A stretch of 64,000 nt of DNA. It comes from Vicinamibacterales bacterium (GTDB lineage: Bacteria; Acidobacteriota; Vicinamibacteria; Vicinamibacterales; UBA8438). Below are positions 1,793 to 29,699 of the stretch, piece by piece. The notes under the pieces were generated by a model that did no database searches, was not told where the DNA came from, and saw only the letters and a list, made by a program, of their open reading frames with translations. The stretch is taken from positions 1,364,078 through 1,428,077 of the forward strand of contig OZ242323.1 in the NCBI GenBank assembly GCA_965208165.1, written 5' to 3'. A program made the translations under genes and the position numbers. The stretch's first letter is position 1. Each line of letters begins with the position of its first letter.

Positions 1793-2782
1793 TCACACCG
1801 TCGACCGCAGCCGTCGCCCCAGCACGGTCAGCCGGTACTTCTGGTTCCTGGCGTTGGGTGCGTCGGGGCGGGTCATCTCCACGTACCCGTCCTGCAGCGC
1901 GGGCGACAGGTAGCGTTCGCGCAGCGACTTGCGGTCGCTGAGGCCGAGAGCATGGAGGATGTCGCGCCGCGACATCTCGCCGGTCAGCACGGACAACAGG
2001 CGCCGGACTTGGGGGGTTATATGGGGGGCTTCCTGGGGGGTCCGGACCGCGGCGAGAATCGCGTCCAGCATGAAGGCGACGAAGCGCGTGCTCTCGCCCT
2101 CGGCGGAGCTCTCCCGGATGGCCTGGTAGTACTCGCTCTGCCGGGCGCGGACGAGGCTCTCGACGGGCACGGAGGCGAACAGGGTCTTCCAACGGGTCAG
2201 GATCAGCGTCTGCCAGAGCCGGCCCATCCGCCCGTTGCCGTCCTCGAAGGGATGGATGAACTCGAACTCGTAGTGGAAGACCGAGCTGGCGATCAACGGG
2301 TGCTCGTCGGTGCCGCCGAGCCACGCCAGCAGCTCGGCCATCAGCGACGGCACACGCGCTGCCGGCGGGCCCACGTGGTGGACCCGGTCCTGGCCCATCA
2401 CCGCCACACTGCCGCGACGATAGTGGCCGGGGGCATCCACGAGGCCGGTCATCAGGACCTCGTGGGCGTTCAGCAGGTCGGCCTCGCTGGCCGGGTCCCA
2501 CCGCTCGTAGCGATCGTAGGCCTTGATGGCGTTCCGGGCCTCCTGAACGTCCCTCAACGGGGCGACGACGGGCTTGCCGTCGAGAATCGTGGAGATCTGC
2601 TCCTCGGTGAGGATGTTGCCCTCGATGGCCAACGAACCCTGGATCGAGCGGATGCGGTTGATGCGCCGTAGTCGAAGATCCTGTGAGAGGCCACCCGCCT
2701 CGGTGCGGCCGACCGCTTCCGCGATCTGCGCGACCCGGGACAGTATGCCCGTGGTGATGCGGTAAGGCGGTTCGTGGCTCAT
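1793..2782 (-). CDS. Fic family protein (class II, AMPylation/filamentation domain)
   Basis: Fic active-site motif HPFEDGNGRMGR; N-terminal inhibitory S-x-x-x-E-G/N motif (SLAIEGN). Start MSHEPP at 2782; the longer track ORF has an unsupported 5' extension. Confidence 0.85.
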   Translation of the reverse strand: MSHEPPYRITTGILSRVAQIAEAVGRTEAGGLSQDLRLRRINRIRSIQGSLAIEGNILTEEQISTILDGKPVVAPLRDVQEARNAIKAYDRYERWDPASEADLLNAHEVLMTGLVDAPGHYRRGSVAVMGQDRVHHVGPPAARVPSLMAELLAWLGGTDEHPLIASSVFHYEFEFIHPFEDGNGRMGRLWQTLILTRWKTLFASVPVESLVRARQSEYYQAIRESSAEGESTRFVAFMLDAILAAVRTPQEAPHITPQVRRLLSVLTGEMSRRDILHALGLSDRKSLRERYLSPALQDGYVEMTRPDAPNARNQKYRLTVLGRRLRSTV

Positions 2783-2825
2783 GCTTCTCACCCGACTCAA
2801 CGGCGCGACGGTGGGTGATGCGCGG

Positions 2826-3203
2826 CTACGCCGCCATCGTACGGATGCCGTAGAGCGGAATCCGCGCATCGCGGGTGACGACCACCAGCCCCTCCACCTG
2901 CGCCTGCGCGACCAGCATCCGGTCGAACGGATCGCCATGATGGGGTGGAAGTGCGCCGGCCTGCTCCGCGTGCTGGAACGTAAGGTCCAGCGGGAGGAAA
3001 CCCTGCTGCCGGACGCCGGCTTCCAGATCGTCCGGGGCCTCGAGCTTGCCCAGCGCCCGCTTGATTGCGATCTCCCAGCCGCTGACCGCGCTGACGAAGA
3101 TGTCGTTGTGCGCATCAGCCAGCGCCGCGCGCGTCCCGCCGCTCAGCTTCCGCGGCTCGGTCAGCGACCAGAGCAGCGCGTGCGTGTCCAGCAGCAGGCG
3201 CAC
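2826..3203 (-). CDS. vapC: PIN-domain toxin VapC
   Basis: PIN N-terminus (V)RLLLDTHALLW...; GTG start overlaps the upstream antitoxin stop by 4 nt. Confidence 0.75.
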   Translation of the reverse strand: MRLLLDTHALLWSLTEPRKLSGGTRAALADAHNDIFVSAVSGWEIAIKRALGKLEAPDDLEAGVRQQGFLPLDLTFQHAEQAGALPPHHGDPFDRMLVAQAQVEGLVVVTRDARIPLYGIRTMAA

Positions 3204-3205
3204 GA

Positions 3206-3463
3206 CTACTCTTCCTCTTCGCCGGGGAATATTCTCGAGTTCCAGAACGCCTCGATCACGTCCGGCGGCGTCTCGTCGAAGTCCGGAGCCATCCAGATTT
3301 GGCCTTCCAGCGCCCCGAGCCTGCGCTTGGCCTTCGGTTCGCGGTAGGGGACCAGCCGCAGATACGGCTCGCCGGCCTTGGCGATCACGACGTCCTCCCC
3401 CGCCCACGCCGCCTTCGCAAGCCGCGAGAGCTGCGACTTCGCCTCGTGCATGTTCACCTTCAT
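3206..3463 (-). CDS. Phd/YefM-family antitoxin
   Basis: MKVNMHEAKSQLSRLAKAA..GEDVVIAKAGEPYLRLVP is typical of a prevent-host-death antitoxin. AAGGAG RBS upstream; 4-nt overlap with VapC. Confidence 0.7.
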   Translation of the reverse strand: MKVNMHEAKSQLSRLAKAAWAGEDVVIAKAGEPYLRLVPYREPKAKRRLGALEGQIWMAPDFDETPPDVIEAFWNSRIFPGEEEE

Positions 3464-3478
3464 CGGTCTCCTTCGCGC

Positions 3479-3498
3479 CCTAGCTAGACCTAGCTAGG
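3479..3498. promoter_or_regulatory. putative operator: CTAGCTAG-AC-CTAGCTAG double palindrome upstream of the Phd-VapC-Fic operon
   Basis: Two copies of the palindromic octamer CTAGCTAG, 2 nt apart, about 16 nt upstream of the antitoxin RBS. Typical position for an antitoxin autoregulatory site. Confidence 0.4.
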
Positions 3499-3555
3499 TT
3501 ACAGTCGCGCCATGGCCTCGTCAAGCGGGTGTTCCGGAGGGATGCCGGGCGAGCG

Positions 3556-3996
3556 CTATCCCGGCTGCGGCGGCGTGTGGACGATCTCGTACTTGATGCC
3601 CTCGGGGTCCTTGAAGAAGAGCGCGTAGTAGCCCGGCGGGACGTACTCGGGGAACTCGCGCGGCGGGATCACGATCGTGGCTCCGATCTCCTTCAGCTCG
3701 AGATGCAGCCGATCGACCTCGGCGCGCGACTCCGCCCTGAACGCGAGGTGATGCAGCGCGCCGGGCCTGCGGCGGTTGACGGCATCGCCCCGGAACGCGC
3801 TCCTCGGCGAGTTGATGGCGAAGCCCAGCCGCGGATGCAGGTACTCGACGACGTGCAGCTCGTGATCGTCCAGCACGGCGCTGTTCCTGCTCTCGAGATC
3901 GAAGCCGAGGAGCGGAAGCAGCTTGTCGTAGAAGGGCACCGCGACGCTCATGTCCTTCACGGTGATCTCGATGTGGTCGATCATCGGCTCCATCAC
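3556..3996 (-). CDS. VOC (glyoxalase/bleomycin-resistance/dioxygenase) family protein
   Basis: MIDHIEITVKDMSVAVPFYDKLLPLLGF...; size and pattern fit the VOC fold. Confidence 0.8.
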   Translation of the reverse strand: MMEPMIDHIEITVKDMSVAVPFYDKLLPLLGFDLESRNSAVLDDHELHVVEYLHPRLGFAINSPRSAFRGDAVNRRRPGALHHLAFRAESRAEVDRLHLELKEIGATIVIPPREFPEYVPPGYYALFFKDPEGIKYEIVHTPPQPG

Positions 3997-4023
3997 GCCA
4001 TCCCCTTCCTCGACTCGGTGGCT

Positions 4024-4416
4024 TCACGCCGGAGACTCGACATCGAGACCCGCCGCGACGGCGGCGGCGCGGAGCCGGAGGTCGTAGGTCACCAGGGCTT
4101 CGAGTCCGTCCAGCGACAGCGCGGTGGCGAGGTGAACGGCATCGAGGCTGCGCAGGGGGGCCGGTCCCAGTGCAGCGGCGTCATGCAGGATCGCTTCGTC
4201 CACGGCGACCAGGGCGATTCCCTCCAGGATCTGCTCCGCCCGGCGCGGCGCAGCCCGCGAGCGGCCGTGCGTGCGGCGCAGCGCCCGGAGCACCTCGACG
4301 CGGACGAGACCGCTGGCGACGCGGTCCTCATGGTCGGCGAGGAACCGGCGGAGTGCTTCCGACTCGGGCTCCGGTACGACGAGCTTGACGATGGCGGAGG
4401 AGTCGAGGTAGACCAC
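4024..4416 (-). CDS. vapC: PIN-domain toxin VapC (second copy)
   Basis: MVYLDSSAIVKLVVPEPESEAL...LDAVHLATAL is a classic VapC. Confidence 0.8.
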   Translation of the reverse strand: MVYLDSSAIVKLVVPEPESEALRRFLADHEDRVASGLVRVEVLRALRRTHGRSRAAPRRAEQILEGIALVAVDEAILHDAAALGPAPLRSLDAVHLATALSLDGLEALVTYDLRLRAAAVAAGLDVESPA

Positions 4417-5924: not shown

Positions 5925-6136
5925 CGCCGCCGGGTCGAAGCGAGACGCCGCCGGGTCGAAGCGAGACGCCGCCGGGTCAAAGCGAGACGCCGCCGGGTCG
6001 AAGCGAGACGCCGCCGGGTCGCGAGAAGCCGGCCGGGTCAAAGCGAGACGCCGACCGGGTTGAAGCGAGACGCCGGCCGGGTCGAAGCGAGAAACCGGCC
6101 GGGTCGAAGCGAGAAGCCGGCCGAGTCGGAGCAGAG
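5925..6136. repeat. tandem repeat, 21-bp unit x about 10 (GCCGGGTCGAAGCGAGACGCC)
   Basis: Head-to-tail copies that degenerate toward the 3' side; intergenic. Confidence 0.85.
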
Positions 6137-6143
6137 GCGGCCG

Positions 6144-7151
6144 CTACTGCTGCGATTCCTCCTCGGCCGCGGCCCTGTCGTCCGCCCGCGCCCCGGACAG
6201 GATGCCCTCCATCGAGTAGTTCCCCTCGTGGCAGGCGTACTCGAACAACGGCGTGTCGGTCCGCTGCATGGGCATCGACGCCGTCCAGGGGACCGCCCAG
6301 GTGTCGAGGTCGTTCACCGTGAACGTGTACTCGAGGGTGTCGTCGTCCAGCCGGGTGAACCGCTCCACCAGGGTGAAGCTGTCGCTCGACGCCACGCCGG
6401 AGCCCCCCGAGGTCAGCGGGATCCACTGGCGCTGGTCGTTGAAGTTCGCCGACTCGATGACCAGCGTGTCGCCCTCCCAGTAGCCGCGCGAGTCGCCCGT
6501 CCACAGGCGGATGCCGTCGTCGAGGGCGGGGCGTCCGTCGAGGGGCACGATGCGCGAGGTGTGCACCATCTCGGTGTGGATGACCACGTGGTCGGGGGTC
6601 TGGAAGAGCTGCATGTTCTGGTTGTAGGCGAGCGGCGTGATGGGGGGGCCGGCGTTGAACCCCACGATGCACCGGTCGGACGTGTTGCGGTCGGTGTAGG
6701 TGTCGGCGGGGTGCTCGGCCATGTGCGCCCGCCGCGCCTCGGCGCGCTCGGCGCCGACCTCGGACAGCTCGGGGAACCGGCCGTTCGGAGGATCGGTGAT
6801 GAGCGACGTGCGCCGCGTCTCGATGGGCCGGGTGCCCCGGTCCATCCAGAAGTTGTTGTAGGCGCCGACGTTGCCGCCAGCCTCGGTCCTCTGCGCCTCG
6901 CGCTCCCAGAGCTCGATGTCGCGCTCCACGGCCTCCCGCTCGAGGGTCGCGGCCTCCTCCGGCGTATAGAACGCCTGGTCGCCCAGGTCTTCCGGCCGCT
7001 CCAGCGGGGTGATGGTGCGGAAGTCCCAGATGCCCTGCAGATCCGGCGCCCCCCACGGGGTCCGGGGCGCGTCCTGGGCCGCCGCCGGGGCCGCGGTCAG
7101 CCCCGCGATGGCGATCACGGCGAGCGCCGCGACGAGAGAACGATTGGTCAT
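6144..7151 (-). CDS. hypothetical secreted protein
   Basis: Signal peptide MTNRSLVAALAVIAIAGLTAAPAAAQ; long ORF in the correct-strand context; no recognised domain. Confidence 0.6.
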   Translation of the reverse strand: MTNRSLVAALAVIAIAGLTAAPAAAQDAPRTPWGAPDLQGIWDFRTITPLERPEDLGDQAFYTPEEAATLEREAVERDIELWEREAQRTEAGGNVGAYNNFWMDRGTRPIETRRTSLITDPPNGRFPELSEVGAERAEARRAHMAEHPADTYTDRNTSDRCIVGFNAGPPITPLAYNQNMQLFQTPDHVVIHTEMVHTSRIVPLDGRPALDDGIRLWTGDSRGYWEGDTLVIESANFNDQRQWIPLTSGGSGVASSDSFTLVERFTRLDDDTLEYTFTVNDLDTWAVPWTASMPMQRTDTPLFEYACHEGNYSMEGILSGARADDRAAAEEESQQ

Positions 7152-26188: not shown

Positions 26189-27178
26189 ATGGCGCGAAAG
26201 GTAACGCTGTTCACGGGACAATGGGCCGACCTGCCGCTCGCCGAGCTGGCCCCCAAGGCGAAGCAGTTCGGTTTCGACGGGCTGGAGCTGGCGTGCTGGG
26301 GAGACCACCTCGACGTCGCCCGCGCCGCCGTCGACCAGGACTACTGCGACGGGCGCCATGCCCTGCTGGCCGAGCACGGGCTCGGCTGCTGGGCGATCTC
26401 GCACCACCTCGCCGGCCAGCTCGTCTGCGACCCGAACGACGACCGGTCCGACGCGTTCGCCCCCGAGGCGGTTCACGGCGACCCCGAGGCGAAGCGGGCG
26501 TGGGCGGTCGAGACCATGAAGAACACCGCCCGCGCCGCCCGCAACCTCGGGCTGAAGGTGGTATGCGGGTTCACGGGGTCGCCCATCTGGCACCTGCTCT
26601 ACTCGTTCCCGCCGGTGTCCGAGGAGACCCTTGAGGTCGGCTACCGGCGGTTCGCCGAGCTGTGGCACCCGATTCTCGACGTGTTCGACGAGTGCGGGGT
26701 GCGGTTCGCCCTCGAGGTGCACCCCACCGAGATCGCGTTCGACATCGTCAGCGCCCACCGTGCCCTCGACGCCGTCGGCCGGCGCGAGGCGTTCGGCTTC
26801 AACTTCGACCCCAGCCACCTGCAGTGGCAGGGGATGGAGCCCGCCCGGTTCATCGGCGAGTTCTCCGACCGCATCTACCACGTGCACATGAAGGACGCTG
26901 CCGTCACCCTCGACGGCCGCACCGGCCTGCTCTCGTCCCACCTGCCGTTCGGGGCGGCCGACCGGGGCTGGGACTTCCGCTCGGTGGGCCGGGGCGACGT
27001 CGACTTCGAGGCGATCATCCGCGCCCTGAACCGCATCGGCTACGCGGGGCCGCTCTCGGTCGAATGGGAGGACTCGGGCATGGACCGCGAGCACGGCGCC
27101 CGCGAGTCGTGCGAGTACGTGAAGGACGCCGACTTCGAGCCGTCGACGGTGGCGTTCGACGCCGCGTTCGAGGAGTAG
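26189..27178 (+). CDS. sugar-phosphate isomerase/epimerase (xylose-isomerase-like TIM barrel)
   Basis: [16 protein letters not shown]...HPTEIAFD...[10 protein letters not shown]...HVHMKD contains the AP-endonuclease-2 / TIM-barrel family motifs. Confidence 0.85.
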
Positions 27179-27260
27179 GGGTGGAGGGCCGGCGACCGGC
27201 GCCCGGAACCGTGGTATAACGGTTGAACGTAGCGAAACGACGGCCCTCCAAGGGACTCGG

Positions 27261-28136
27261 ATGCGCATTCTCTTCTGGAATACCGGCAGGCGTCCCGTAG
27301 TAGACCTGCTCAGGGATGTATGCGGTCGCCGGGATCTGGACGTTCTCGTCCTGGCGGAGACGGTCGACCCCGTCGAACGTCTCGTCTCTCAATTGAACAG
27401 GGGAGCAGGACGGCTCTACTCTTCTGCGCCTGACCCGCTGGCGGGGTTGGTCAAGCGGCCGTTACGCGTGCTGACGCGCCTGCCCGAGAACCGTGTGAAG
27501 GCTGTTCATGACAGCGATGGCGTCACGGTGAGGCGAGTATTCCCTGTCATCGGACCGGACTTCACCATCGTCGCCGTGCACCTTCGCAGCAAGCTGTTTC
27601 GGGACCATGACGATCAGGTGTCCGAAGCCAAGGACGTCAACGCGGACATCGAATCGGCCGAGCGTCAAGTGGGCCACTGCAGAACCCTCGTCATCGGCGA
27701 CTTCAACATGAACCCCTTCGAGCGCGGGTTGGTGAATTTCGACTGTTTTCACGCGGTGATGTCGCGAGCTACGGCGCGCCGACGATTGCGCAGGTCCGAC
27801 CGCCGTGAACGGCGCTTTTTCTACAATCCGATGTGGAGTCACTTCGGCGACCGCAGTCCGGGTCCTCCCGGCTCCTACTATCGCAGCGGTTCCCGACAGA
27901 CCGAGTATTTCTGGCACCTGTTCGATCAGGTTCTGCTTCGACCGGAACTACTCGACTACTTCATGGATGATGGCCTGGAAGTCGTCACGCGGATCGGGCA
28001 GCGGTCGCTCGTGAATCGACGCGGAGTCCCCGATCGCAATACAGGATCTGATCATCTACCGTTGTTTCTCGACTTGTCGATAGAGGCGGGAGTTTTGCAT
28101 GGCAGCGCTCAACCCATGGCTCAAGCTGAAGGATGA
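27261..28136 (+). CDS. endonuclease/exonuclease/phosphatase (EEP) family protein
   Basis: EEP catalytic motifs in order: DVLVLAE, VAVHL, IGDFNMNP, GSDHLPL. Local GC about 58-60% against a 70% background, with distinct codon usage. Confidence 0.8.
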   Translation: MRILFWNTGRRPVVDLLRDVCGRRDLDVLVLAETVDPVERLVSQLNRGAGRLYSSAPDPLAGLVKRPLRVLTRLPENRVKAVHDSDGVTVRRVFPVIGPDFTIVAVHLRSKLFRDHDDQVSEAKDVNADIESAERQVGHCRTLVIGDFNMNPFERGLVNFDCFHAVMSRATARRRLRRSDRRERRFFYNPMWSHFGDRSPGPPGSYYRSGSRQTEYFWHLFDQVLLRPELLDYFMDDGLEVVTRIGQRSLVNRRGVPDRNTGSDHLPLFLDLSIEAGVLHGSAQPMAQAEG

Positions 28137-28512
28137 GGCGTCGAAGATCCGTACGCCTGTCCTGATTCTCAACAGGCAGGCGGATATGTTGAACGAGGCC
28201 ACCGATGGACTGATTAGAGGGAGTACCGACGTCGAGGGAGGACTTGGCCGTGCGGAAACGACCGTCGCCTTCTGCGCCTATGTCCCGACGCTGAACAACT
28301 ACGAGGTCCGCCTGTTTCGAGTGAGGCAACCGGTCACCCAGTATCCCGCACTACTGATTCCGGAATGGGGCGAGGGTATTCATCCGGTCACGTGCGAGAA
28401 CGACGAGCGGCTTGAAGCGGCCGTGGTCGACTATTGTGGGGGCCCTGACGTGCAGAAAATCGTCAGCGGTTTGTTGGCGCAGGCGCGTCACGCGATGGGT
28501 GAAGCCACGTGA
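28099..28512 (+). CDS. hypothetical protein in the low-GC islet
   Basis: 137-aa ORF (true start may be the internal Met at about 28186); overlaps EEP by 38 nt; its stop overlaps the GTG start of the downstream oxidoreductase (GTGA). Confidence 0.45.
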   Translation: MAALNPWLKLKDEASKIRTPVLILNRQADMLNEATDGLIRGSTDVEGGLGRAETTVAFCAYVPTLNNYEVRLFRVRQPVTQYPALLIPEWGEGIHPVTCENDERLEAAVVDYCGGPDVQKIVSGLLAQARHAMGEAT

Positions 28513-29699
28513 GCAGTACAGACATCGAGACGAAACGACGGCTGCGCATGGGCATGGTGGGGGGAGGCCCCGGGGCGTTCATCGGCGACGTCCACCGCCG
28601 GGCCGCGTGCATCGACGGGGACGTGGATCTGGTGGCGGGGGCGTTCGCGTCCGACGCCGCCCGGTCGCGGCAGAAGGGGGCCGAGCTGGGGCTGGACCCC
28701 GACCGCGCCTACGCCTCGTACGCCGCCATGGTCGACGGCGAACGCGCGATGCCCGCCGGCGAGCGCATCGACTTCGTGTCCATCGTCACCCCGAACCACG
28801 TCCACTTCCCCGTTGCCAAGGCGTTTCTCGAGGCCGGGTTCCACGTCGTCTGCGACAAGCCGATGACGTTCACGGTGGACGAGGCGCGCGAGTTGCGCCA
28901 GATCGTCCGCAAGAGCCGCCGCGTCTTCGCCCTCACCCACAACTACACCGGCTATCCGATGGTGAAGCTGGCCCGCGACCTCGTGCGGGCGGGCGACCTC
29001 GGCCGGCTCCGCAAGGTGGTCGTCGAGTACCCGCAGGGCTGGCTCGCCACCCGCCTCGAGCGGACCGGCATGAAGCAGGCCGAGTGGCGCACCGACCCCC
29101 GGCGCAGCGGCGGCGCCGGCTGCATGGGCGACATCGGCACCCACGCCGAGAACCTCGCCGAGTACGTCACCGGCCTGCGCATCGTCGAGCTGTGCGCCGA
29201 CCTGACGACCTTCGTTCGCGGGCGCCGCCTCGACGACGACGGCAACGTGCTGGTGCGGTTCCAGAAGGGCGCGCGGGGCGTGCTGCACGCCAGCCAGGTG
29301 TCGGTGGGGGAGGAGAACGCCCTCACCCTCCGGGTCTACGGCGAGGAGAAGGGTCTGGAGTGGCGGCAGGAGGCCCCGAACGCTCTCCGCGTCCGGTCGA
29401 ACGACGGGCCGGTCGAGATCTGGACCCGCGGCTCGGGCTACGTCGCCGCGAAGAGCCCCGCCGCGGCGCGGGCCACCCACCTGCCGGCGGGGCACCCCGA
29501 GGCGTTCCTCGGCGCCTTCGCCAACGTCTACCGCAACGCCGCCGACACCATCCGCGCCCGTCTCGCCAGCGTGAAGCCCGACCCGCTGGCCCTCGACTTC
29601 CCGACCGTCGACGACGGCCTGCGCGGCATGCTGTTCATCGAGGCCCTGCTCGAGAGCGCGCGGTCGGACCGGAAGTGGACGCGCGTGCCGGCGCGATGA
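28509..29699 (+). CDS. Gfo/Idh/MocA-family oxidoreductase (cytoplasmic)
   Basis: MGMVGGGPGAFIGDVHRRAA...VCDKPMTF...ALTHNYTGYP follows the family pattern. Confidence 0.9.
   Translation: MSSTDIETKRRLRMGMVGGGPGAFIGDVHRRAACIDGDVDLVAGAFASDAARSRQKGAELGLDPDRAYASYAAMVDGERAMPAGERIDFVSIVTPNHVHFPVAKAFLEAGFHVVCDKPMTFTVDEARELRQIVRKSRRVFALTHNYTGYPMVKLARDLVRAGDLGRLRKVVVEYPQGWLATRLERTGMKQAEWRTDPRRSGGAGCMGDIGTHAENLAEYVTGLRIVELCADLTTFVRGRRLDDDGNVLVRFQKGARGVLHASQVSVGEENALTLRVYGEEKGLEWRQEAPNALRVRSNDGPVEIWTRGSGYVAAKSPAAARATHLPAGHPEAFLGAFANVYRNAADTIRARLASVKPDPLALDFPTVDDGLRGMLFIEALLESARSDRKWTRVPAR

Follow-up and report, generated by a model that had tools for sequence, protein, structure and literature searches.

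A widespread two-gene cassette of an EEP-fold enzyme and a small acidic partner, possibly a toxin and its inhibitor, inserted in a Vicinamibacterales sugar operon

Between the isomerase and oxidoreductase genes of a sugar operon in a Vicinamibacterales bacterium (Acidobacteriota) lies a stretch of low GC content that carries two overlapping genes. This raises the question of what the insert is, how it came to reside in the operon and what its two products might do together. We studied the locus within the window, by which we mean the whole 64 kb stretch of DNA that was analysed; other contigs and loci carry handles beginning with L. The insert occupies positions 27230-28512 of the window and holds the gene for an EEP-fold (endonuclease/exonuclease/phosphatase) enzyme and a gene for a protein of 137 aa. 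The features of the region are as follows.

26189-27178, + strand: isomerase-like host gene upstream of the insert; 329 aa, xylose-isomerase-like TIM barrel (Pfam PF01261 AP_endonuc_2, E = 1.6e-45)
27179-27260, + strand: isomerase-EEP spacer; 82 nt, from the isomerase stop to the EEP start
27261-28136, + strand: EEP-fold enzyme, putative toxin; 291 aa (PF03372)
28099-28512, + strand: partner protein, putative inhibitor or immunity protein; 137 aa, acidic, predicted alpha/beta sandwich of unknown family
28509-29699, + strand: Gfo/Idh/MocA oxidoreductase, host gene downstream of the insert; 396 aa (Pfam PF01408, PF22725, PF02894)

Two coupled genes of low GC in a sugar operon

The insert has a GC content of 0.60 against 0.71 for the 64 kb. 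In 1283-nt sliding windows it forms the global GC minimum (z = -4.5; mean 0.712, sd 0.024) and is the only stretch that falls below 0.66. An initial sequence-only reading of this DNA had reported a drop in GC and a change in codon usage between the two host genes, and both are borne out gene by gene: the EEP and partner genes have GC contents of 0.598 and 0.599, versus 0.705 for the isomerase and 0.725 for the oxidoreductase, and their GC3 is about 0.70 (0.688 and 0.71) versus 0.96 (0.958 and 0.96). The ORF map and the sequence agree with that reading on the layout as well. The EEP and partner ORFs overlap by 38 nt, and the TGA stop of the partner overlaps the GTG start of the oxidoreductase as GTGA (28509-28512), a type of overlap that recurs in L007 and L008. 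The N-terminal length of the oxidoreductase is consistent with that of orthologues at sites lacking the insert. Among homologues both genes evolve under purifying selection, with dN/dS of about 0.2 for the EEP gene and 0.3-0.4 for the partner gene, and both ORFs are therefore real genes. The wider context in the window is in keeping with a sugar-catabolic locus, with a sodium:solute symporter, a TAT-signal Gfo/Idh/MocA protein and a GntR regulator.

The 82-nt spacer ahead of the EEP gene contains a 9-bp inverted repeat (27183-27191 and 27241-27249) around the palindrome AACCGTGGTATAACGGTT (27207-27224). Its CCGTGG.ATA...ACGG core is common to the other copies of the cassette in sugar operons and is missing from two copies in other contexts, L005 and L006. 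The (A/T)CCGT...ACGG(T/A) arms are retained in L003, L004 and L008 with differing loops, and the repeat may form a hairpin in RNA or bind a protein. A search of positions 26900-28800 against Rfam gave no match, and no sigma-70-like promoter was found ahead of the EEP gene on the + strand of the window. Across the loci the cassette usually lies co-directionally just 3' of a host gene and is thus probably transcribed by read-through from the host operons, which here would be the isomerase-oxidoreductase sugar operon.

History of the cassette at this site

In the outgroup contigs L088-L091, whose isomerase is 75-86% identical, the isomerase gene leads straight on to that of the oxidoreductase, roughly 10-100 nt away. 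Because the two host genes are adjacent there, the cassette is an insertion into the operon spacer. Equally low-GC copies occupy the same site in at least six other Vicinamibacterales-type contigs (L001, L003, L004, L007, L008 and L168), where the flanking genes are 91-99% identical to those of the window or to each other. The sequence-only reading had proposed a horizontally acquired module and had held that syntenic, similarly low-GC copies in the same operon across the lineage would instead indicate an old operon component. Such copies do exist, but the outgroups still identify an insertion. What survives of the proposal is a discrete two-gene insertion that is also found in unrelated contexts and phyla; what does not is a recent acquisition, given the old copies in relatives.

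The isomerase-EEP spacers of the sugar-operon copies are homologous to one another and unlike the regions upstream of the cassette in L005 and L006, which argues for a single ancestral insertion. It would have taken place once, in an ancestor of the Vicinamibacterales clade to which the window belongs. In related metagenomes the cassette, with the same 38-nt overlap, is also found in other contexts, among restriction-modification and toxin-antitoxin genes in L005 and adjoining a SUF operon in L006. On a larger scale the cassette may have spread horizontally over long times and then been inherited vertically inside housekeeping operons.

Low GC is not peculiar to this copy. The cassette is AT-richer than its flanks by more than 3 points in 67 of 72 loci and GC-richer in none (median difference -7.5 points), and its GC content tracks that of the host (r = 0.86, slope 0.87). 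As the low GC is family-wide and the insertion is common to several relatives, the GC dip does not date the transfer, and we rejected low GC as a mark of recent transfer on these two grounds.

Within allele group A (the window, L007 and L001) the cassette and its flanks have diverged alike, with dS of 0.10-0.16 and 0.10-0.18, respectively. Between allele groups the cassette dS is 0.35-0.80 against 0.13-0.26 for the flanks, so that the cassette alleles coalesce deeper than the surrounding genes. In the few genomes compared, this deeper coalescence suggests allele exchange, re-invasion or the upkeep of old alleles. We rejected uniformly faster evolution of the cassette as the only cause of the high divergence between alleles, since cassette and flank dS agree within group A.

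Could the cassette have placed itself here? In a selfish element resembling a free-standing homing endonuclease, the EEP enzyme would cut spacer alleles that lack the cassette and recombinational repair would copy the cassette in. The cassette shares with such endonucleases a place between conserved genes that is empty in relatives (L088-L091); it sits exactly in the short spacer of conserved co-directional genes, its boundaries coincide with ORF boundaries, degenerate copies occur, and the excess divergence between allele groups, though absent within group A, would also fit. The homology of the EEP-upstream spacer in all sugar-operon copies points instead to one ancestral insertion followed by long-term vertical inheritance, a homing element would leave the universally conserved partner without a role, and to our knowledge EEP is not a recognised homing-endonuclease fold. 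We consider this explanation very improbable.

Several further observations concern the sugar operon and its surroundings. In a more distant relative (L092:2982-3272) the spacer between isomerase and oxidoreductase is taken up by another insert, about 290 nt of short tandem repeats with GGACTGAGTGCTGA-like and GTCCGAC-like units, and insertions may recur in this spacer. On the downstream side of the sugar operon, L001:11021-16414 and L003:11289-16328 carry a giant ORF (1,679 to more than 2,000 aa) whose only match is a weak one to AAA_22, together with a 360-aa protein without a domain match; the corresponding region of the window differs, with the GntR regulator and an SPFH/Band 7 protein. 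A DDE transposase lies inside the sodium:solute symporter gene of L168 (1222-2601), and the downstream Gfo/Idh/MocA gene of L004 (9253-10444) is apparently truncated or fragmented.

An EEP-fold enzyme and its partner across phyla

The EEP assignment made in the sequence-only reading held up against Pfam. The window protein matches PF03372 (Exo_endo_phos) over residues 6-265 with 26.8 bits against a cut-off of 24.5 (E = 5e-6), and 73 of 75 family members match the same model. Seven residues, N7, E33, H107, D147, N149, D264 and H265, are invariant in 75 homologues and D222 is nearly so. By analogy with DNase I and APE1 we take these eight to be the full EEP catalytic and metal-binding set. A protein collection clustered at 90% identity contains 1384 homologues, and the closest solved structures by sequence profile are, weakly, ExoIII-type nucleases (best PDB E = 0.007). 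In PHROGs there was a weak match to phrog_24714, of unknown function. Judged from its sequence, the protein is a member of the EEP superfamily and we conclude that it is an active phosphodiesterase; it is probably a nuclease. It shares with the superfamily (PF03372: ExoIII/APE1, DNase I, CdtB, sphingomyelinases, CCR4/nocturnin and inositol 5-phosphatases) a Pfam score above the gathering threshold and the catalytic set, including D147/N149 in a GDFN motif and D264/H265 in an SDH motif. It differs in belonging to a very divergent clade, marked by its own FFYNPMW motif and a basic loop, and in being consistently paired with a dedicated small protein.

That small protein is, as the sequence-only reading had it, without a recognisable domain: no Pfam domain was found among 147 partner sequences, and the partner had no match in Pfam, NCBIfam, PADLOC or PHROGs. 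It has 23 close homologues by sequence, and its profile retrieves 1986 clusters from a library at 50% identity, nearly all of them stand-alone proteins of 125-140 aa. The family is acidic (median pI 5.2), and its invariant or near-invariant residues are W7, R18-T19-P20, a VPTLNNY motif and Q81-Y82-P83, among others. The partner profile gave chance-level hits only against PDB sequences, and Foldseek searches with the partner models returned nothing significant (first model against the PDB, better model against BFVD). The predicted fold is a generic protein-binding alpha/beta sandwich, with no HTH, RHH, AbrB or other DNA-binding element.

The two genes travel together. A scan with the EEP alignment, at one genome per species, yielded relatives in at least 591 genomes spread over many phyla. 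The best 80 of these loci fall in Acidobacteriota, Cyanobacteria, Planctomycetota, Desulfobacterota, Methylococcales, Chloroflexota, Nitrospirota, Gemmatimonadota, Verrucomicrobiota, Bacteroidota, Bacillota, Myxococcota and several candidate phyla; another Vicinamibacterales MAG (OZ242003.1) encodes an EEP relative with 97% identity. We looked for the pair as a conserved neighbourhood in other genomes, and of 86 loci, which come from unrelated contexts and phyla, 84 have a homologue by the partner profile immediately 3' of the EEP gene; at the other two the contig runs out no more than about 140 nt from the EEP match. At nearly all loci the two genes overlap by up to 50 nt or are separated by up to 22 nt, and a search for a third conserved gene at these loci found none.

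Mobile elements carry the pair unevenly. At least 18 of 19 IMG/VR (viral or prophage) contigs have it; plasmids seldom do (3 of 72,556 records), and no copy was found in 50,697 phage genomes. A Bacillus cereus megaplasmid has the pair beside a DUF4365 protein and an integrase, with both genes labelled 'hypothetical protein'; across all copies the public names recovered were that label or a generic EEP label. In a Desulfobacterales genome (L028:2768-4175) a single EEP gene is followed by three tandem partner paralogues (2768-3178, 3160-3609 and 3633-4175), a row that resembles an immunity-gene array. No account of an EEP-type pair acting as toxin and antitoxin or in defence turned up in full-text literature searches, and the sole item joining 'EEP' with phage defence uses EEP as the name of a phage. 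The insert represents one of many copies of a two-gene cassette, widespread and unnamed, that lies outside every named toxin-antitoxin, immunity and defence family in the libraries searched.

Loss of the enzyme gene, neighbouring genes and a toxin-inhibitor reading

In a small sample with partly biased ascertainment, six loci (L001/L002, L003, L168, L169, L170 and L055) have a disrupted EEP gene next to an intact partner ORF, and no case of an intact EEP gene without its partner was seen among the loci examined. The EEP gene is almost wholly deleted in L001/L002, has lost residues 49-161 through an internal deletion in L003 and contains an in-frame stop in L055, while L168 and L169 have frameshifts, both in low-coverage long-read assemblies. 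In L170 (3887-6732) an IS66-family transposase splits the gene, leaving residues 1-49 at 3887-4033 and 42-291 at 5980-6732. Under a null proportional to gene length, all six disruptions would fall in the longer gene with P of about 0.1, and the partner of the sugar operon might be kept only because the oxidoreductase start overlaps its gene. Decay of the EEP gene alone, with the partner surviving, favours a toxin with a protective partner. A toxin-immunity pair had already been suggested in the sequence-only reading and fits this asymmetry, the reverse of which was never seen; the function itself is one that we infer.

We propose that the cassette is a toxin and protein-inhibitor pair, of a type II toxin-antitoxin-like or toxin-immunity-like kind, and put the chances of this at about even. 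The first gene would encode an EEP-fold phosphodiesterase that depends on Mg2+ and has its catalytic residues intact; it is probably a nuclease and would be toxic when free. The second, tightly coupled to the first, would encode a small acidic alpha/beta protein that binds the EEP enzyme and silences it, perhaps until some trigger intervenes. The cassette has no recognisable regulator or DNA-binding domain of its own.

The genes around the cassette bear on what else it might be. Among 118 immediate neighbours, taken as the nearest gene on each side, most are housekeeping genes, including Met-, Val-, Leu- and Gly-tRNA synthetases, CarA/CarB, PhnJ, G6PD, nitrilases and ABC transporters. By heuristic gene calls, 51 of 58 loci have an upstream gene that points the same way as the cassette, often less than 50 nt away, and synteny around the pair is stable within families. 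Such surroundings would suit a non-toxic, two-subunit cellular enzyme, in which the partner, as a subunit, would lend specificity to the EEP phosphodiesterase, target it or activate it, and the complex would act in cell physiology, for instance in repairing or turning over nucleic acids or in hydrolysing a phosphorylated metabolite. The overwhelmingly housekeeping or metabolic neighbours, the shared orientation and stable synteny, the absence of defence or toxin-antitoxin domains and a set of invariant polar residues in the partner (R18, T19, P20, N66, N67, Y68, Q81 and Y82) beyond what a simple plug would likely need are all in keeping with it. The distribution of the cassette is patchy, however, its neighbours vary between families and hence offer no common pathway, and it is consistently AT-richer than the host; repeated loss has hit the enzyme gene only, and orphan partners and tandem partner copies exist (L001, L028). 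A two-subunit enzyme of this kind seems to us unlikely.

The sequence-only reading had also raised a minimal defence module, and this found no support. PADLOC-DB v2.0.0 gave no hits at E <= 1 for the EEP and partner proteins of the window, none for 75 EEP homologues and three chance-level hits (E > 0.001) for 147 partners. A few of the 118 neighbours match Mokosh, Uma2 or methyltransferase models; as the neighbours are mostly housekeeping genes, a role in defence islands is unsupported. The cassette thereby differs from the defence systems of that database, with no HMM match and no co-localisation with defence genes when the nearest gene on each side is scored. One context is clearly defence-island-like, the only such context seen: L005:1-16876 holds a 72%-identical copy of the pair with type I restriction-modification genes (HsdR, HsdM) and Phd/YefM and Unstab_antitox antitoxins nearby, as well as an HTH-peptidase M78 gene and a UvrD-like helicase.

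It is possible to keep the toxin-inhibitor architecture and take anti-phage abortive infection as the selected function, with infection releasing or activating the EEP nuclease. Many toxin-antitoxin-like pairs have turned out to be defence systems, and the L005 copy among type I restriction-modification, Phd/YefM and HTH-M78 genes, the B. cereus plasmid copy beside DUF4365 and an integrase, the Mokosh and Uma2 matches and the copies on viral or prophage contigs would all be expected of one. The lack of any PADLOC-DB v2 match for either family, the mere handful of defence-like genes among the immediate neighbours and the usual position inside housekeeping operons speak against it, and we regard defence as an improbable primary function.

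How closely the proposed toxin and inhibitor would resemble known systems can be judged from their arrangement. Like type II toxin-antitoxin systems with the toxin gene first (of the higBA, mqsRA and hicAB type), the cassette consists of two small, coupled or overlapping, co-oriented genes that are adjacent in nearly all loci. It also shares with them a patchy, horizontally spread distribution, a faster-evolving second gene and, in the six loci of the small and partly biased sample above, decay of the presumed toxin gene with survival of the presumed antitoxin. In contrast to those systems, the partner has no DNA-binding domain (HTH, RHH or AbrB) and no match to any antitoxin family, and the cassette in the window has no evident promoter of its own. 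We know of no EEP fold among the established toxin families of toxin-antitoxin systems, and none appeared in the literature searched. The pair has no sequence homology to nuclease or toxin and immunity pairs such as barnase-barstar, NucA-NuiA, colicin DNase-Im and Rhs TreTu-TriTu. Unlike polymorphic toxins (Rhs, CDI, T6SS and T7SS), the EEP proteins have no secretion, trafficking or delivery domain, being 270-291 aa long with a catalytic core that begins at residue 1-7.

A broader and more tentative idea, which we hold to be possible but doubtful, is that these loci form a phylum-spanning family of toxin-inhibitor addiction modules with an EEP toxin. Lacking a promoter and regulator of their own, they would be embedded co-directionally in housekeeping operons, with translation of the downstream host gene coupled to the second gene so that the module is hard to lose, and they might possibly serve in abortive-infection defence too. 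If so, residence inside housekeeping operons by a cassette AT-richer than its host would be an unusual strategy of persistence.

For genome annotation, the history of this locus means that a sharp dip in GC need not signal recent transfer. The partner family comprises about 2,000 clusters at 50% identity whose genome records are all labelled 'hypothetical', and at least 591 species genomes carry the family, among them those of Acidobacteriota, Cyanobacteria, Planctomycetota, methanotrophs and cable bacteria. Should the cassette prove to be a toxin and its inhibitor, EEP would be new among the toxin folds, and the partner a new family among the inhibitor folds, of bacterial toxin-antitoxin and immunity systems, and a small protein inhibitor specific to EEP enzymes could serve as a tool.
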